Assembly (NCBI RefSeq): GCF_003334765.1
Contig: NZ_QOWT01000035.1
Length of the DNA: 40,549 nucleotides
Source of the DNA: Escherichia coli
Lineage (GTDB): Bacteria > Pseudomonadota > Gammaproteobacteria > Enterobacterales > Enterobacteriaceae
Reading direction: 5' to 3' (one strand)
Shown in pieces: positions 1,924-8,252 of this stretch; the stretch's first letter is position 1, and each line of letters begins with the position of its first letter. The notes under the pieces were generated by a model, which saw nothing but the letters and a program-made list of their open reading frames with translations, was not told the origin of the DNA and searched no databases. Both the position numbers and the translations under genes were made by a program.

Positions 1924-3243
1924 ATGGATATCTGCTCCCGAAACAAGAAATTAACGATTAGAAGACCAGCGATACTAGTTGCACTGGCACTTTTACTGTG
2001 TAGTTGTAAAAGCACGCCTCCAGAGTCCATGGTGACACCACCAGCAGGTTCAAAGCCACCAGCCACGACGCAACAATCGTCACAACCGATGCGTGGCATC
2101 TGGCTGGCCACGGTTTCTCGGCTCGACTGGCCACCGGTTTCCTCGGTTAACATTAGTAACCCCACCAGCCGGGCCCGTGTACAACAACAGGCGATGATCG
2201 ACAAACTGGATCATCTGCAACGTCTCGGCATAAACACGGTCTTTTTCCAGGTCAAGCCGGACGGTACCGCCCTGTGGCCATCGAAAATTTTGCCGTGGTC
2301 CGATCTTATGACCGGTAAGATTGGTGAAAATCCGGGTTACGATCCGCTGCAATTTATGCTCGACGAAGCCCACAAGCGTGGGATGAAAGTACACGCCTGG
2401 TTTAACCCCTATCGCGTATCGGTTAATACGAAGCCCAGTACTATCAGGGAACTGAATAGCACTCTGTCTCAACAACCGGCGAGCGTCTATGTGCAACACC
2501 GCGACTGGATCAGAACGTCTGGCGATCGCTTTGTCCTCGACCCGGGCATCCCTGAGGTTCAGGACTGGATCACATCAATAGTCGCAGAAGTGGTTTCCCG
2601 CTATCCCGTAGATGGCGTGCAGTTTGACGACTATTTCTATACGGAGTCACCGGGTTCACGGCTAAATGATAACGAAACGTACCGTAAATACGGAGGCGCA
2701 TTTGCGTCAAAAGCAGACTGGCGGCGCAACAATACTCAGCAGTTAATTGCAAAGGTATCGCACACCATTAAAAGCATTAAGCCGGGAGTCGAATTTGGTG
2801 TTAGCCCGGCAGGCGTGTGGCGTAACCGATCACACGATCCGCTCGGTTCCGATACCCGAGGCGCGGCAGCCTATGACGAATCCTACGCTGACACCCGTCG
2901 ATGGGTGGAACAAGGATTGCTGGATTACATTGCTCCCCAAATTTACTGGCCGTTCTCACGGAGTGCCGCGCGTTATGACGTGTTGGCAAAATGGTGGGCG
3001 GATGTCGTTAAACCGACCAGGACCCGCCTGTATATCGGTATCGCCTTCTATAAAGTGGGTGAACCTTCAAAGATAGAGCCAGACTGGATGATTAACGGCG
3101 GCGTACCGGAACTGAAAAAGCAGCTCGATCTTAACGATGCTGTGCCCGAAATTAGCGGCACCATCTTGTTCCGTGAGGACTATCTGAATAAACCGCAGAC
3201 TCAACAAGCGGTCAGCTATCTGCAAAGTCGCTGGGGCAGTTAA
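1924..3243 (+). CDS. yddW: glycoside-hydrolase-like lipoprotein YddW (DigH), 439 aa
   Basis: 439-aa ORF with an N-terminal signal sequence ending in a Cys-containing lipobox-like motif (LALLLCSC); recognised as YddW; position between gadC and dosC as in K-12. Confidence 0.88.
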   Translation: MDICSRNKKLTIRRPAILVALALLLCSCKSTPPESMVTPPAGSKPPATTQQSSQPMRGIWLATVSRLDWPPVSSVNISNPTSRARVQQQAMIDKLDHLQRLGINTVFFQVKPDGTALWPSKILPWSDLMTGKIGENPGYDPLQFMLDEAHKRGMKVHAWFNPYRVSVNTKPSTIRELNSTLSQQPASVYVQHRDWIRTSGDRFVLDPGIPEVQDWITSIVAEVVSRYPVDGVQFDDYFYTESPGSRLNDNETYRKYGGAFASKADWRRNNTQQLIAKVSHTIKSIKPGVEFGVSPAGVWRNRSHDPLGSDTRGAAAYDESYADTRRWVEQGLLDYIAPQIYWPFSRSAARYDVLAKWWADVVKPTRTRLYIGIAFYKVGEPSKIEPDWMINGGVPELKKQLDLNDAVPEISGTILFREDYLNKPQTQQAVSYLQSRWGS

Positions 3244-3606
3244 ACTCCCATTCTTACTTTGTAACAAGCCGGTGCTTTACCCACCGGCTTGTTACCCTCT
3301 TAAACTATCCCACTAATAATCATGCTTACTTAAGTCAAATTAACCACACTTAGTTAAACAGCCATAAATCCCTAATAAAAATGTATGAATATGAAAAACC
3401 ATACGATATTCGCTGTCACCGAAAAATAATTACGATGGGCTATACTCTTCTGAAGAACAGTAGCGTAGATTGAAACTGTCCTAAATCGCTTATTTCTTTT
3501 CAGTATATCTTCATATTTCAGGAGAATATGGTGCAGTTAGTCGATCTCGCACGTTGCGTTTCATTTTGATTCCGTCTGATTTCCCAGCCTTATAAGGGTG
3601 TGAATT

Positions 3607-4989
3607 ATGGAGATGTATTTTAAAAGAATGAAAGATGAGTGGACCGGACTTGTCGAACAGGCAGATCCGCCCATTCGTGCTAAAGCCGCGGAAATTGCCG
3701 TTGCGCATGCTCATTATCTGAGTATCGAGTTTTATCGAATTGTCCGCATCGACCCGCATGCCGAAGAATTCTTGAGTAATGAACAAGTTGAGCGGCAGTT
3801 GAAGAGTGCGATGGAACGCTGGATTATTAACGTGCTTTCTGCCCAGGTTGACGATGTCGAAAGGCTAATACAAATCCAGCATACCGTCGCGGAAGTGCAT
3901 GCCCGCATAGGAATTCCGGTAGAAATTGTCGAGATGGGGTTTCGGGTGCTGAAAAAAATCCTCTATCCGGTGATCTTCTCTTCGGATTATTCCGCCGCAG
4001 AAAAACTTCAGGTCTACCATTTCTCGATTAACAGTATTGATATCGCGATGGAAGTGATGACTCGCGCGTTTACCTTTAGTGACAGTAGTGCCTCAAAGGA
4101 AGATGAAAACTATCGTATCTTCTCGTTACTGGAAAACGCCGAAGAAGAAAAAGAACGGCAAATAGCCTCAATACTTTCATGGGAAATAGATATTATCTAT
4201 AAAATCCTGCTGGATTCTGATTTAGGCAGTAGTTTGCCTTTAAGCCAGGCTGATTTTGGCCTGTGGTTTAACCATAAAGGTCGACATTATTTTAGTGGTA
4301 TTGCCGAAGTAGGCCATATCTCCCGTCTGATTCAGGATTTCGACGGTATTTTCAATCAAACCATGCGTAACACCAGAAATTTGAATAACAGAAGTCTGCG
4401 GGTGAAATTTTTATTACAGATAAGAAATACCGTATCGCAAATTATTACCTTGCTGCGTGAATTGTTTGAAGAAGTATCGCGCCACGAAGTCGGTATGGAT
4501 GTACTGACGAAATTACTTAACCGCCGTTTCCTACCGACTATCTTCAAACGCGAAATTGCCCATGCCAACCGGACCGGTACACCGCTGTCAGTGCTGATTA
4601 TTGACGTTGATAAATTCAAAGAGATCAACGATACGTGGGGCCATAACACTGGTGATGAAATTCTGCGTAAAGTCTCTCAGGCCTTTTATGACAACGTCCG
4701 CAGTAGTGATTATGTTTTCCGCTACGGGGGCGATGAATTTATCATTGTTTTGACTGAAGCTTCTGAAAACGAAACGTTACGTACCGCAGAACGTATTCGC
4801 AGTCGGGTGGAGAAAACCAAACTGAAAGCCGCAAACGGCGAAGATATTGCCCTCTCACTTTCCATCGGTGCCGCCATGTTTAATGGTCATCCTGACTATG
4901 AGCGCCTCATTCAAATAGCCGATGAAGCTCTGTATATCGCCAAAAGACGAGGTAGAAACCGTGTTGAACTCTGGAAAGCCAGTCTTTAG
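3607..4989 (+). CDS. dosC: globin-coupled diguanylate cyclase (O2 sensor), 460 aa
   Basis: 460-aa ORF; C-terminal GGDEF domain with RYGGDEF motif visible in translation; recognised as DosC (YddV). Confidence 0.93.
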   Translation: MEMYFKRMKDEWTGLVEQADPPIRAKAAEIAVAHAHYLSIEFYRIVRIDPHAEEFLSNEQVERQLKSAMERWIINVLSAQVDDVERLIQIQHTVAEVHARIGIPVEIVEMGFRVLKKILYPVIFSSDYSAAEKLQVYHFSINSIDIAMEVMTRAFTFSDSSASKEDENYRIFSLLENAEEEKERQIASILSWEIDIIYKILLDSDLGSSLPLSQADFGLWFNHKGRHYFSGIAEVGHISRLIQDFDGIFNQTMRNTRNLNNRSLRVKFLLQIRNTVSQIITLLRELFEEVSRHEVGMDVLTKLLNRRFLPTIFKREIAHANRTGTPLSVLIIDVDKFKEINDTWGHNTGDEILRKVSQAFYDNVRSSDYVFRYGGDEFIIVLTEASENETLRTAERIRSRVEKTKLKAANGEDIALSLSIGAAMFNGHPDYERLIQIADEALYIAKRRGRNRVELWKASL

Positions 4990-5013
4990 ATGCGCCAGGA
5001 TGCAGAGGTAATC

Positions 5014-7413
5014 ATGAAGCTAACCGATGCGGATAATGCCGCCGATGGCATTTTTTTCCCCGCCCTTGAGCAAAATATGATGGGTGCGGTGTTAATTAAC
5101 GAAAATGATGAAGTGATGTTTTTCAACCCCGCCGCAGAGAAGCTCTGGGGATACAAACGTGAAGAAGTCATTGGCAATAACATTGATATGCTGATTCCGC
5201 GGGATTTGCGTCCTGCGCATCCTGAATACATTCGTCACAACCGTGAAGGCGGTAAAGCGCGTGTTGAGGGGATGAGTCGGGAGCTGCAGCTGGAGAAAAA
5301 AGACGGCAGTAAAATCTGGACCCGTTTTGCGCTATCGAAAGTGAGCGCCGAGGGGAAAGTTTATTACCTGGCGCTGGTACGGGATGCCAGCGTAGAAATG
5401 GCGCAAAAAGAACAGACCCGACAATTGATTATTGCCGTTGACCATCTCGACCGACCGGTGATTGTCCTCGATCCGGAACGCCATATTGTGCAGTGCAATC
5501 GCGCATTTACCGAAATGTTTGGTTACTGCATTAGCGAAGCCAGCGGTATGCAGCCCGATACACTCCTGAACATTCCTGAATTCCCTGCCGATAACCGCAT
5601 TCGTTTACAACAGTTGCTATGGAAAACCGCCCGCGATCAGGACGAATTTCTGCTGTTGACGCGCACCGGTGAAAAAATCTGGATTAAAGCCTCTATCAGC
5701 CCGGTTTATGACGTGCTCGCGCATCTGCAGAACCTGGTAATGACTTTCTCGGATATCACCGAAGAACGGCAGATTCGCCAGCTTGAAGGCAATATTCTCG
5801 CCGCCATGTGCAGCAGCCCGCCATTTCATGAAATGGGGGAAATCATTTGTCGTAACATCGAATCTGTACTCAACGAATCGCATGTTTCGCTGTTCGCACT
5901 GCGCAACGGGATGCCGATACACTGGGCGTCATCTTCCCACGGTGCAGAAATTCAAAATGCGCAAAGCTGGTCAGCGACCATTCGTCAGCGTGATGGCGCG
6001 CCTGCGGGGATCCTGCAAATTAAAACCTCGTCAGGAGCAGAAACCAGCGCCTTTATCGAACGCGTGGCAGATATCAGCCAGCATATGGCCGCGCTGGCGC
6101 TGGAACAGGAAAAAAGCCGTCAGCATATTGAACAACTCATCCAATTTGATCCGATGACCGGTCTGCCAAATCGCAATAACCTGCACAATTACCTCGATGA
6201 CCTGGTCGACAAAGCCGTCTCTCCCGTGGTGTATCTCATCGGTGTTGACCATATTCAGGATGTGATTGATAGCCTTGGCTATGCGTGGGCCGATCAGGCA
6301 TTGCTGGAAGTGGTCAATCGCTTTCGTGAAAAACTCAAACCGGATCAGTATCTCTGTCGTATCGAAGGTACGCAGTTTGTCCTCGTGAGCCTCGAAAACG
6401 ACGTCAGTAACATTACCCAAATCGCCGATGAGCTACGGAATGTGGTCAGCAAGCCGATAATGATTGACGATAAACCCTTCCCGCTTACCTTGAGTATTGG
6501 CATCAGCTACGACCTGGGTAAAAACCGCGATTACTTGCTCTCCACTGCTCACAATGCAATGGATTATATTCGCAAGAATGGCGGTAACGGCTGGCAGTTC
6601 TTCAGCCCGGCGATGAACGAAATGGTAAAAGAGCGTTTGGTTTTAGGCGCAGCGCTGAAAGAAGCGATTAGCAATAACCAACTGAAACTGGTTTACCAGC
6701 CGCAAATCTTCGCAGAAACGGGTGAACTGTACGGCATCGAAGCCCTTGCTCGCTGGCACGATCCCCTGCATGGTCATGTGCCCCCTTCACGGTTTATTCC
6801 TCTCGCAGAAGAGATTGGTGAAATCGAAAATATTGGGCGCTGGGTCATCGCGGAAGCTTGCCGTCAGTTAGCAGAATGGCGTAGCCAGAATATTCATATC
6901 CCGGCGTTATCCGTGAACTTGTCGGCGCTGCACTTTCGCAGTAATCAACTGCCTAATCAGGTGTCTGATGCAATGCACGCCTGGGGTATTGACGGCCACC
7001 AGCTGACGGTAGAAATCACGGAAAGCATGATGATGGAACACGATACCGAAATCTTTAAGCGCATTCAGATCCTGCGTGATATGGGCGTGGGCTTATCGGT
7101 AGATGATTTTGGTACGGGCTTTTCCGGATTATCCCGCTTAGTCAGTCTTCCGGTAACGGAAATCAAAATTGACAAAAGTTTTGTCGATCGTTGTCTGACC
7201 GAAAAACGCATCCTTGCCTTACTTGAAGCCATTACCAGCATTGGGCAAAGCCTCAATTTAACCGTCGTGGCGGAAGGCGTCGAAACCAAAGAGCAATTTG
7301 AGATGCTACGCAAGATCCACTGTCGCGTTATTCAGGGATATTTCTTTTCCCGCCCCCTACCCGCCGAAGAAATTCCAGGCTGGATGAGCAGCGTGTTACC
7401 GCTGAAAATCTGA
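5014..7413 (+). CDS. dosP: heme-PAS c-di-GMP phosphodiesterase (O2 sensor), 799 aa
   Basis: ORF track gives 4990..7413 (807 aa); the start is placed at the internal ATG (MKLTDADNAADGIFF...) to give the 799-aa length I recall for DosP. EAL motif (YGIEALARW) and a degenerate GGDEF region are visible. Start 25 nt after the dosC stop. Confidence 0.9.
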   Translation: MKLTDADNAADGIFFPALEQNMMGAVLINENDEVMFFNPAAEKLWGYKREEVIGNNIDMLIPRDLRPAHPEYIRHNREGGKARVEGMSRELQLEKKDGSKIWTRFALSKVSAEGKVYYLALVRDASVEMAQKEQTRQLIIAVDHLDRPVIVLDPERHIVQCNRAFTEMFGYCISEASGMQPDTLLNIPEFPADNRIRLQQLLWKTARDQDEFLLLTRTGEKIWIKASISPVYDVLAHLQNLVMTFSDITEERQIRQLEGNILAAMCSSPPFHEMGEIICRNIESVLNESHVSLFALRNGMPIHWASSSHGAEIQNAQSWSATIRQRDGAPAGILQIKTSSGAETSAFIERVADISQHMAALALEQEKSRQHIEQLIQFDPMTGLPNRNNLHNYLDDLVDKAVSPVVYLIGVDHIQDVIDSLGYAWADQALLEVVNRFREKLKPDQYLCRIEGTQFVLVSLENDVSNITQIADELRNVVSKPIMIDDKPFPLTLSIGISYDLGKNRDYLLSTAHNAMDYIRKNGGNGWQFFSPAMNEMVKERLVLGAALKEAISNNQLKLVYQPQIFAETGELYGIEALARWHDPLHGHVPPSRFIPLAEEIGEIENIGRWVIAEACRQLAEWRSQNIHIPALSVNLSALHFRSNQLPNQVSDAMHAWGIDGHQLTVEITESMMMEHDTEIFKRIQILRDMGVGLSVDDFGTGFSGLSRLVSLPVTEIKIDKSFVDRCLTEKRILALLEAITSIGQSLNLTVVAEGVETKEQFEMLRKIHCRVIQGYFFSRPLPAEEIPGWMSSVLPLKI

Positions 7414-7425
7414 CAAATTCCTCTC

Positions 7426-7449
7426 GCCCGCACTCGCGGGTTTTCATTT
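7426..7449 (+). terminator. rho-independent terminator downstream of dosP
   Basis: Inverted repeat CCCGC / GCGGG with short loop immediately followed by TTTTCATTT, starting 13 bp after the dosP stop. Confidence 0.65.
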
Positions 7450-7610
7450 AACGTGACACTGTCACTTAAATACTGTGATTTCAGCTACGATTCCGGGAGA
7501 TTCCTTCCTTAACTTCCCCTCTTGCACCAAAACTGCACTACGCTGCACAAATGTTGATCAAAAGTTAAAAAATATAACTTTAAGCCAGCATTCTGGCGCT
7601 TATCCCGGCA

Positions 7611-7626
7611 TGGCATGAGATCTGCA
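7611..7626 (+). promoter_or_regulatory. candidate sigma54 (-24/-12) promoter for ddpX operon
   Basis: TGGCATGAGATCTGCA matches the sigma54 consensus TGGCACG-N4-TTGCA with correct GG..GC spacing, about 45 bp upstream of the ddpX ATG; TGCAC repeats lie 65-90 bp further upstream. Confidence 0.55.
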
Positions 7627-7670
7627 TAAGCGGAAAGCGCAGCAATTTTTGTCTTATACAGGAACCGTTT

Positions 7671-8252
7671 ATGTCGGATACCACCGAACTGGTTGATTTA
7701 GCCGTAATCTTCCCTGATCTGGAGATCGAATTGAAATACGCCTGCGCTGATAACATCACAGGTAAAGCTATTTATCAGCAAGCGCGTTGTCTGTTACACA
7801 AGGATGCGATTACCGCGCTGGCGAAAAGTATCAGCATCGCCCAGCTGTCAGGGTTACAACTGGTGATTTACGATGCGTATCGCCCACAACAAGCACAGGC
7901 GATGTTGTGGCAAGCCTGCCCAGACCCGCAATATGTTGTTGATGTGACGGTCGGTTCTAATCACAGCCGTGGCACGGCGATCGACCTGACGCTTCGTGAT
8001 GAGCACGGGAACATCCTCGATATGGGCGCAGGGTTCGATGAAATGCACGAGCGCTCCCATGCCTATCACCCTTCCGTCCCGCCCGCCGCTCAGCGCAATC
8101 GGCTGTTGCTGAATGCGATAATGACTGGTGGCGGTTTTGTCGGTATCTCCAGCGAATGGTGGCACTTCGAATTACCCCAGGCAGCGAGTTACCCTCTGCT
8201 CGCTGATCAATTCTCTTGTTTTATATCCCCTGGCACACAGCACGTCAGTTAA
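7671..8252 (+). CDS. ddpX: D-Ala-D-Ala dipeptidase (VanX homologue), 193 aa
   Basis: 193-aa ORF recognised as DdpX; first gene of a six-gene cluster with an ABC dipeptide transporter downstream. Confidence 0.92.
   Translation: MSDTTELVDLAVIFPDLEIELKYACADNITGKAIYQQARCLLHKDAITALAKSISIAQLSGLQLVIYDAYRPQQAQAMLWQACPDPQYVVDVTVGSNHSRGTAIDLTLRDEHGNILDMGAGFDEMHERSHAYHPSVPPAAQRNRLLLNAIMTGGGFVGISSEWWHFELPQAASYPLLADQFSCFISPGTQHVS

Follow-up and report, generated by a model that had tools for sequence, protein, structure and literature searches.

The 40,549-nucleotide stretch of Escherichia coli DNA analyzed here (contig NZ_QOWT01000035.1 of assembly GCF_003334765.1; hereafter the window, whose coordinates are used throughout) carries, at 3607..7413, two adjacent genes for an oxygen-sensing diguanylate cyclase, DosC, and an oxygen-sensing phosphodiesterase, DosP, the enzymes that make and break c-di-GMP (cyclic diguanosine monophosphate). 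With a confidence close to certainty, this locus is the dosCP operon of E. coli K-12 (dgcO-pdeO, formerly yddV-dos), with a sigma-S-type promoter as its most likely start. From 3230 to 7500 the window shows 100% nucleotide identity to b1490, b1489 and their flanks in K-12 MG1655, RefSeq annotation places dosC and dosP at 3607..4989 and 5014..7413, and the neighbors are those of K-12, with gadB, gadC and digH (yddW) on the upstream side and ddpX and ddpABC on the downstream side. No evidence contradicting either gene identity was found. Among 5426 complete E. coli genomes, the locus is present in 5414.

An original prediction, made from the letters of this DNA without database searches, had described the two genes as a module, well known from K-12, whose paired members make and break c-di-GMP, and both the full identity to K-12 and the literature bear this out. 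The identities of the genes, their domains and key residues, and the conservation both of the adjacency of dosC and dosP and of a -10 element upstream of them are demonstrated by the analysis itself. This operon has already been described in complete molecular detail, including full-length structures, and its occurrence here, in a sequence identical to that of K-12, adds nothing new.

Domain architecture of DosC and DosP

The first gene, dosC (also dgcO, yddV and b1490; 3607..4989, plus strand), encodes a globin-coupled diguanylate cyclase of 460 residues that is 100% identical to the K-12 protein. Pfam searches resolve it into a Protoglobin domain (PF11563) at residues 27-155 with an E-value of 4.7e-10, a helical middle domain (PF21118, DosC_2nd) at 180-289 with the whole model covered and an E-value of 6.8e-49, and a GGDEF domain (PF00990) at 297-452 with an E-value of 1.7e-50. 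The distal Tyr43 and proximal His98 of the globin are present, as are the GGDEF residues at 374-378 and, five residues before them, an RSSD sequence at 365-368. The GGDEF motif is intact, and the cyclase should be catalytically competent, its activity being described in the literature. Structures deposited in PDB as "Diguanylate cyclase DosC" (4zva, 4zvb, 4zvc and 4zve) match with E-values from 1e-77 downward; the globin domain matches 4zva and 4zvb at 1e-96 to 1e-102, and the middle domain matches 4zvc.

The second gene, dosP (pdeO, dos, yddU, b1489; 5014..7413, plus strand), encodes a heme-PAS oxygen-sensing c-di-GMP phosphodiesterase of 799 residues. Pfam finds one PAS domain at 33-132 and another at 157-258, a GGDEF domain at 386-533 that matches weakly (E-value 1.9e-21) and an EAL domain at 555-789 that matches strongly (E-value 2.5e-69), and the protein scores 1644 bits against the NCBIfam equivalog model for DosP, NF008467, for which the cutoff is 857. 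PDB entries for "Oxygen sensor protein DosP" match with E-values of 1e-75 to 0; these include the full-length structures 9bgv and 9cdr, the EAL structure 4hu3, and the heme-PAS structures 1v9y and 1s66, the last two at 1e-75 to 1e-92. In the 807-residue numbering explained below, the protein has the proximal His77, the distal Met95, Arg97, EGTQF at 459-463, and EAL at 584-586. Because pairwise alignment of the two GGDEF-type domains sets this EGTQF opposite the GGDEF of DosC, the GGDEF-like domain of DosP is considered degenerate. Residue 195 is Ile, as in UniProt, versus Thr in the crystallized construct.

A domain search of both proteins, proposed as a check when the locus was first described, finds the GGDEF and EAL signatures and confirms the globin and heme sensors. 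The predicted order, a globin-coupled GGDEF protein followed by a heme-PAS protein with a degenerate GGDEF and an EAL domain, holds for the first protein on its Protoglobin, DosC_2nd and GGDEF domains and for the second on its domains, its key residues and the EGTQF alignment.

The dosC gene ends with TAG at 4987..4989, and the spacer between the genes (4990..5013, plus strand) is 24 nt long, not 25 as first given, when measured to the RefSeq dosP start. Within this spacer are a GAGG Shine-Dalgarno sequence at 5004..5007 and an alternative, in-frame ATG at 4990 that directly abuts the dosC stop codon and yields the historical 807-residue DosP, beginning MRQDAEVI. RefSeq and UniProt start the protein at the ATG at 5014 (799 residues), and structural papers start it at the ATG at 4990; the 807-residue numbering is used in structural work (PMC11543664), and the names His77 and Met95 are based on it.

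A candidate sigma-S promoter upstream of dosC

The heptamer CTATACT at 3440..3446 (plus strand), with C at -13 and TATACT at -12 to -7, is a candidate sigma-S-type -10 element that occurs as a single copy in the whole window, and we think it probably the principal -10 of dosC. The original prediction had noticed the same heptamer at coordinates wrong by exactly 10 (3430..3436), and its description of the upstream region 3296..3606 as AT-rich was accurate, with 64.6% A+T in this spacer versus 50.5% for the window as a whole.

The element carries weight because it is conserved, not because it occurs. Spacers were compared from K-12, a B2 strain, two cryptic-clade genomes, E. whittamii and E. albertii. 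Indels and substitutions abound in the part of the spacer that lies 5' of about 3383. Downstream of it, a conserved promoter-upstream block at 3383..3439 (plus strand; GTATGAATATGAAAAACCATACGATATT...CACCGAAAAATAATTACGATGGG) hardly varies within Escherichia, and its sequence around -35 to -24 is A/T-rich. The sequence GATGGGCTATACTCTTC(A/T)GAAG is likewise nearly invariant across the genus, and its CTATACT core is fully so, being unchanged in all of the ten Escherichia sequences examined, five further E. coli lineages among them. Outside Escherichia, CTATACT is kept as GATGGRCTATACTTTTCAGAAG in Citrobacter amalonaticus and in a Citrobacter metagenome-assembled genome, where 257 nt separate it from the ATG, and as AGCTATACTTAG in Phytobacter, where the distance is 160 nt.

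The extended -10 consensus of sigma-S is reportedly KCTAYRCTTAA, as Becker and Hengge-Aronis in 2001 and Weber and coworkers in 2005 are said to have described it. The dosC site shares with this consensus the C at -13 and TATACT, an exact match to CTAYRCT, and differs from it in having CTT after the hexamer where TAA is preferred. With sigma-S promoters the dosC region further shares a poor -35, an A/T-rich spacer and an RpoS-dependent mRNA.

Evidence for RpoS itself comes from published data. A sigma-S region found by chromatin immunoprecipitation on microarrays (ChIP-chip), listed as SigS_357 in a published supplement, corresponds to 3318..3642 and covers CTATACT, and published data from genomic systematic evolution of ligands by exponential enrichment (gSELEX) place an RpoS peak near yddV. 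The level of dosC mRNA is log2 11.2-11.35 in stationary-phase wild type versus 6.7-8.4 in an rpoS mutant, a decrease of about 12-fold, or about 3.6 log2 units (PMC3923258 Table S7). DgcO and PdeO are described as operon-encoded, RpoS-controlled proteins that are induced in stationary phase and bind RNase E (PMC5635695). In stationary phase, digH mRNA is near log2 6.2, about 5 log2 units under dosC, and this low level indicates that dosC is therefore not expressed by read-through from digH.

We infer the exact promoter and start site from spacing: purines 6-8 nt downstream of the -10 place the predicted transcription start at 3452..3454 (plus strand). Several observations weigh against this assignment. 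By itself the heptamer is only mildly unusual and constitutes weak evidence: when the 363-nt spacer was shuffled 20,000 times with dinucleotides preserved, it occurred in 4.2% of the shuffles. No good -35 hexamer is recognizable in the 3383..3439 block upstream of it, and C. sedlakii has lost CTATACT although it retains dosC-dosP. Finally, none of three retrieved 5' ends for dosC lies 6-8 nt past CTATACT, where about 3453 is predicted: these are NC_000913.2 position 1565293, corresponding to 3478 (2 reads; Kim et al. 2012), and positions 1565252, corresponding to 3519 (5 reads, stationary phase), and 1565225, corresponding to 3546 (29 reads, heat shock), both from Cho et al. 2014. The supplements of Cappable-seq, Adams 2021 and Peano 2015 contain no entry for a dosC start. 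In a sigma-70 consensus scan of 3150..7750, the spacer before dosC gave no -35/-10 pair, and the region as a whole gave 2 promoter-like matches versus 7.2 expected from shuffles, but such a scan says nothing about a sigma-S promoter whose -35 is poor.

These published ends could mean that the main dosC promoter is elsewhere than CTATACT and that transcription starts downstream, for example at 3478 from a TAGATT -10 at 3466..3471, or else at 3519 or 3546, an explanation that we consider rather unlikely. The end at 3478 does lie 7 nt past TAGATT (Kim et al. 2012), two further published ends exist at 3519 and 3546 (Cho et al. 2014), and the stretch 3453..3527 is conserved within Escherichia as strongly as CTATACT. 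Read support for the downstream starts, however, is very low (2, 5 and 29), the three maps are mutually discordant, and TAGATT, unlike CTATACT, is not kept in Citrobacter, where the aligned sequence is TAAAAA. Neither 3519 nor 3546 has an acceptable -10 at the proper distance, and a start at 3546 falls inside yddY, a small gene discussed below, and could not yield the experimentally detected YddY protein; for these reasons the ends at 3519 and 3546 look like processing products. We read all three published ends as low-depth or processed ends and retain CTATACT as the probable principal -10. Candidate was the right status for the promoter when it was first proposed, and it is still the right one, the promoter being unproven: the consensus match, conservation, ChIP-chip and RpoS-dependent mRNA now speak for it, while no retrieved 5' end falls at the predicted start. 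One marginal gain is phylogenetic support for a particular sigma-S -10 element.

Separately, the first part of the conserved block, GTATGAATATGAAAAACCATACGATATT at 3383..3410 (plus strand), is located some 45-70 nt before the predicted transcription start and contains an imperfect inverted repeat, GTATG...CATAC. Two segments within it, ATGAAAAAC and CGATATT, are invariant in Escherichia. This part of the block could be the binding site of a regulator.

yddY and the dosC leader

The predicted leader of dosC contains, 37 nt before that gene, yddY (b4746; 3528..3569, plus strand), a gene of 13 codons annotated in NC_000913.3 and not mentioned in the original prediction. It has a strong AGGAG Shine-Dalgarno sequence at 3520..3524, an ATG at 3528, and a TGA at 3567..3569. 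The YddY protein has been detected by means of chromosomal epitope tagging (PMC6001520). A yddY reporter is described as induced by low Mg2+ and dependent on PhoQ, and no phenotype is reported for a yddY deletion (preprint PMC11429745).

The Shine-Dalgarno sequence and ATG of yddY are invariant across Escherichia. The 13-residue peptide is kept in five of six E. coli lineages, with two synonymous changes, and one E. coli lineage, which has a 5-nt deletion, shows an open reading frame (ORF) of 20 codons; in the cryptic clades, E. whittamii and E. albertii the ORF has only 2-3 codons (MVP-stop, MVR-stop, MVL-stop or MM-stop). Because the initiation site is invariant while the frame shrinks outside E. 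coli proper, the pattern suggests a constraint on the initiation site and not on the peptide. That yddY appears to be conserved as a start site, not as a peptide, is a new if small point.

One explanation would be that the unit is really yddY-dosC-dosP, in which the yddY initiation site serves as a regulatory upstream ORF (uORF) that tunes dosC, with no functional peptide. We judge this unlikely. It would be consistent with the invariance of AGGAGAATATG in all Escherichia lineages alongside an ORF length of 13, 20 or 2-3 codons, with the translation of YddY and the lack of a reported phenotype for its deletion, and with a minimum free energy (MFE) fold of the K-12 leader in which 3494..3516 pairs with the dosC start region. 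Yet this helix, formed between 3494..3516 and 3601..3627 (plus strand; about 21 bp, MFE -42.6 kcal/mol), has a z-score of only -2.0. As a long-range structure masking the dosC AUG it is not supported, and covariation does not back it: two to three uncompensated substitutions break it in the E69 clade and in E. albertii, two of the five Escherichia lineages, and Citrobacter lacks it, having a different local hairpin in its place. The Shine-Dalgarno sequence and ATG of yddY are not kept in Citrobacter either, and conservation of 11 nt among close relatives could stem from another constraint. We give little credence to the specific proposal that AGGAG-N3-ATG of yddY is a minimal uORF controlling dosC translation or leader stability and not a protein-coding gene; if true, it may link the dependence of the yddY reporter on low Mg2+ and PhoQ to oxygen-dependent c-di-GMP signaling.

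Other candidates upstream of dosC were tried and rejected. For direct control by PhoP, a search for KGTTTA-N5-KGTTTA with at most three mismatches gave only two overlapping minus-strand sites with two mismatches, at 3355..3381; the PhoP box is rejected because these sites lie in a poorly conserved part of the spacer and the count across the window is barely above that of shuffles. An indirect route, in which PhoP acts through IraM to stabilize RpoS, would fit a sigma-S promoter. An Rfam search found nothing in the dosC leader, and a sub-threshold Rfam match to rli61 (E-value 0.094) is merely the digH terminator hairpin. A minus-strand ORF of 91 residues at 3511..3786, which overlaps both yddY and the start of dosC, is unsupported and was treated as spurious.

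Operon limits and expression of dosP

Directly past the digH stop codon, a terminator-like hairpin at 3261..3295 (plus strand), with a perfect 14-bp stem (GTAACAAGCCGGTG / CACCGGCTTGTTAC), a 7-nt loop and a weak T-run, divides digH from the dosC transcription unit. The core of its stem, GCCGGTG...CAC(C/T)GG, is kept in all Escherichia lineages, the B2 strain having one C-to-T change in the 3' arm. At the other end, an intrinsic-terminator-like hairpin at 7426..7449 (plus strand; GCCCGC-ACTC-GCGGGT followed by TTTCATTT), 13 nt past the dosP stop codon, probably marks where the operon ends on its 3' side. Transcription of ddpX, which follows with a start at 7671, has a separate mapped 5' end. 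A terminator scan gave a strong match at 7426..7441 and a weak match at 5035..5052, inside dosP, and found no terminator-like site between 4989 and 5014. The two genes thus have the layout of an operon, with same-strand adjacency, a 24-nt spacer and a terminator only after dosP, and a transcript covering both dosC and dosP is described in the literature (PMC5635695).

One measurement counts against a shared transcript: dosP mRNA is about 3.7 log2 units under dosC in the same arrays (PMC3923258), so that the abundance of the two halves of the transcript is unequal. It might be, although we consider it improbable, that dosP is substantially expressed from a promoter of its own inside dosC, so that the pair is not a strict single-transcript module. 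Kim et al. 2012 assigned to dosP a 5' end at 1564019, corresponding to 4752 (plus strand; 7 reads), which lies 262 nt before the dosP start and has TATCAT at -12 to -7; this could mark either an internal promoter or a processing site. A consensus scan shows a further promoter-like site at 4688..4716, and loss of rpoS changes dosP mRNA little, in contrast to the roughly 12-fold drop of dosC. The array values for dosP (6.5-7.8), however, are near the array floor, and the small change in the rpoS mutant is for that reason uninformative. Promoter-like matches in the region are below shuffle expectation (2 versus 7.2), and in the literature the two genes are an operon whose proteins are induced together in an RpoS-dependent manner. 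Moreover, in the roughly 21% of E. coli genomes without dosC, the deletion takes out 4752 and leaves dosP fused to the upstream spacer, in which CTATACT is kept. We retain the reading of dosC and dosP as a single operon.

Distribution and decay of the locus across genomes

When one genome per species was searched with DosC, loci were found in Escherichia, Citrobacter, Kluyvera, Phytobacter, Enterobacter and Trabulsiella. In four of these genera, Escherichia, Citrobacter, Phytobacter and (in some cases) Trabulsiella, dosP lies directly 3' of dosC. Around the DosC orthologs of Enterobacter and Kluyvera, which are 67-78% identical, the 4 kb to each side contain no dosP-like gene, and the make/break pairing is therefore not universal in the Enterobacteriaceae. 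Trabulsiella has several dosC paralogs, only some of which adjoin a dosP-like gene.

Decay of the operon is frequent: in about 21% of complete E. coli genomes, no more than 75% of the dosCP region is left, most of dosC being missing. In the B2-type strain E. coli EC65, the equivalent of 3562..4824 is deleted, leaving a 164-nt remnant of the 3' end of dosC and an intact dosP. The upstream spacer of this strain, 92% identical and with CTATACT and the yddY start both kept, is fused to dosP; the ddp operon is absent, and osmC is the next gene after dosP. Loss of DosC in natural isolates has already been described in the literature. Independent deletions in E. albertii NBRC 107761 and E. coli MS 115-1 join dosC to the 3' part of dosP. 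A chimeric globin-EAL protein was considered for these two genomes and rejected; because the translations are out of frame and truncated (356 and 383 residues), the joints represent pseudogenes and not fusions.

Two further matches deserve comment. In E. coli EC2 (NZ_CP058571.1, 2512747..2517693), an IS1 family transposase lies within dosC, so that the match comes in two pieces and exceeds the query in length by about 777 nt. A 398-nt contig of Oceanospirillum linum ATCC 11336, with coverage of 0.9, codes for residues 1-79 of DosC, 100% identical to the E. coli protein, and is almost certainly E. coli contamination of the assembly.

Elsewhere in the window, Rfam identifies a SECIS_3 selenocysteine insertion element at 22706..22764 (minus strand; 84 bits, E-value 9e-19). 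We presume that this element is part of fdnG, for formate dehydrogenase-N, a gene that the K-12 map would lead one to expect here.

Proposed mechanism and significance

The enzymology of the pair, its regulation by O2, its RpoS dependence and its association with the degradosome are known from the literature. O2-bound DosP hydrolyzes c-di-GMP to pGpG, and synthesis by DosC is heme-controlled (PMC11543664). DosC and DosP associate with RNase E and polynucleotide phosphorylase (PNPase), setting c-di-GMP locally (PMC5635695, PMC11543664), and are reported to influence the production of curli and of poly-N-acetylglucosamine (PNAG).

In the mechanism that best fits these data, an RpoS-dependent transcript starts in stationary phase, most likely at the CTATACT promoter, carries yddY in a leader of about 150 nt, and probably ends at 7426..7449. 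DosC is a dimer in which the heme globin, with His98 as the proximal and Tyr43 as the distal residue, is connected by the helical middle domain to the active GGDEF domain, which condenses two molecules of guanosine triphosphate (GTP) into c-di-GMP under heme control. In DosP, the heme-PAS domain has His77 as its proximal ligand and Met95 as a sixth ligand that is displaced on O2 binding. After it come the second PAS domain, the catalytically dead GGDEF-like domain (EGTQF), serving as a structural relay, and the active EAL domain, which linearizes c-di-GMP to pGpG and is stimulated when O2 binds to the heme-PAS. Two proteins that read the same gas, act in opposite directions on c-di-GMP and are expressed from one transcript would constitute a local oxygen-tuned rheostat.

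A difficulty for this scheme is that the direction of the O2 effect on DosC differs between laboratories. Kitanishi and coworkers reportedly found, in 2010, that O2-bound DosC is active. Unliganded DosC is described as producing c-di-GMP (PMC11543664). The dosCP pair is a textbook case of a heme-based gas-sensing cyclase and phosphodiesterase, and its effects extend to the biofilm matrix and to RNA processing.

Comparison with known systems

DosC shares its architecture of sensor globin, middle domain and GGDEF with BpeGReg of Bordetella pertussis and with DgcO/PccGCS of Pectobacterium carotovorum. These globin-coupled cyclases are distant from DosC in sequence, though their globin domains can be recognized as homologous, and the globin domains of PDB entries 4uii, 4uiq, 6i2z, 6m9a and 9dsf match DosC residues 9-165 with E-values of 1e-13 to 1e-20. 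Cyclases of the BpeGReg and PccGCS type are not known to have an operon partner of the heme-PAS EAL kind.

DosP shares its C-terminal GGDEF-EAL tandem, in which EAL is active, with PdeR (YciR) of E. coli, with MorA of Pseudomonas aeruginosa, and with MucR/RbdA (PDB 4rnh and 5m3c), phosphodiesterases that match DosP residues 383-795 with E-values of 1e-76 to 1e-80. Proteins of this type differ from DosP in lacking its heme-PAS ligation by His77 and Met95, and with it direct gas sensing, and their genes are not adjacent to a gene for a globin-coupled cyclase. With the dosCP locus of K-12 MG1655, finally, the locus in the window is identical, including the leader, yddY, the 24-nt spacer, the terminator and the neighboring genes, and no difference between the two is detectable.

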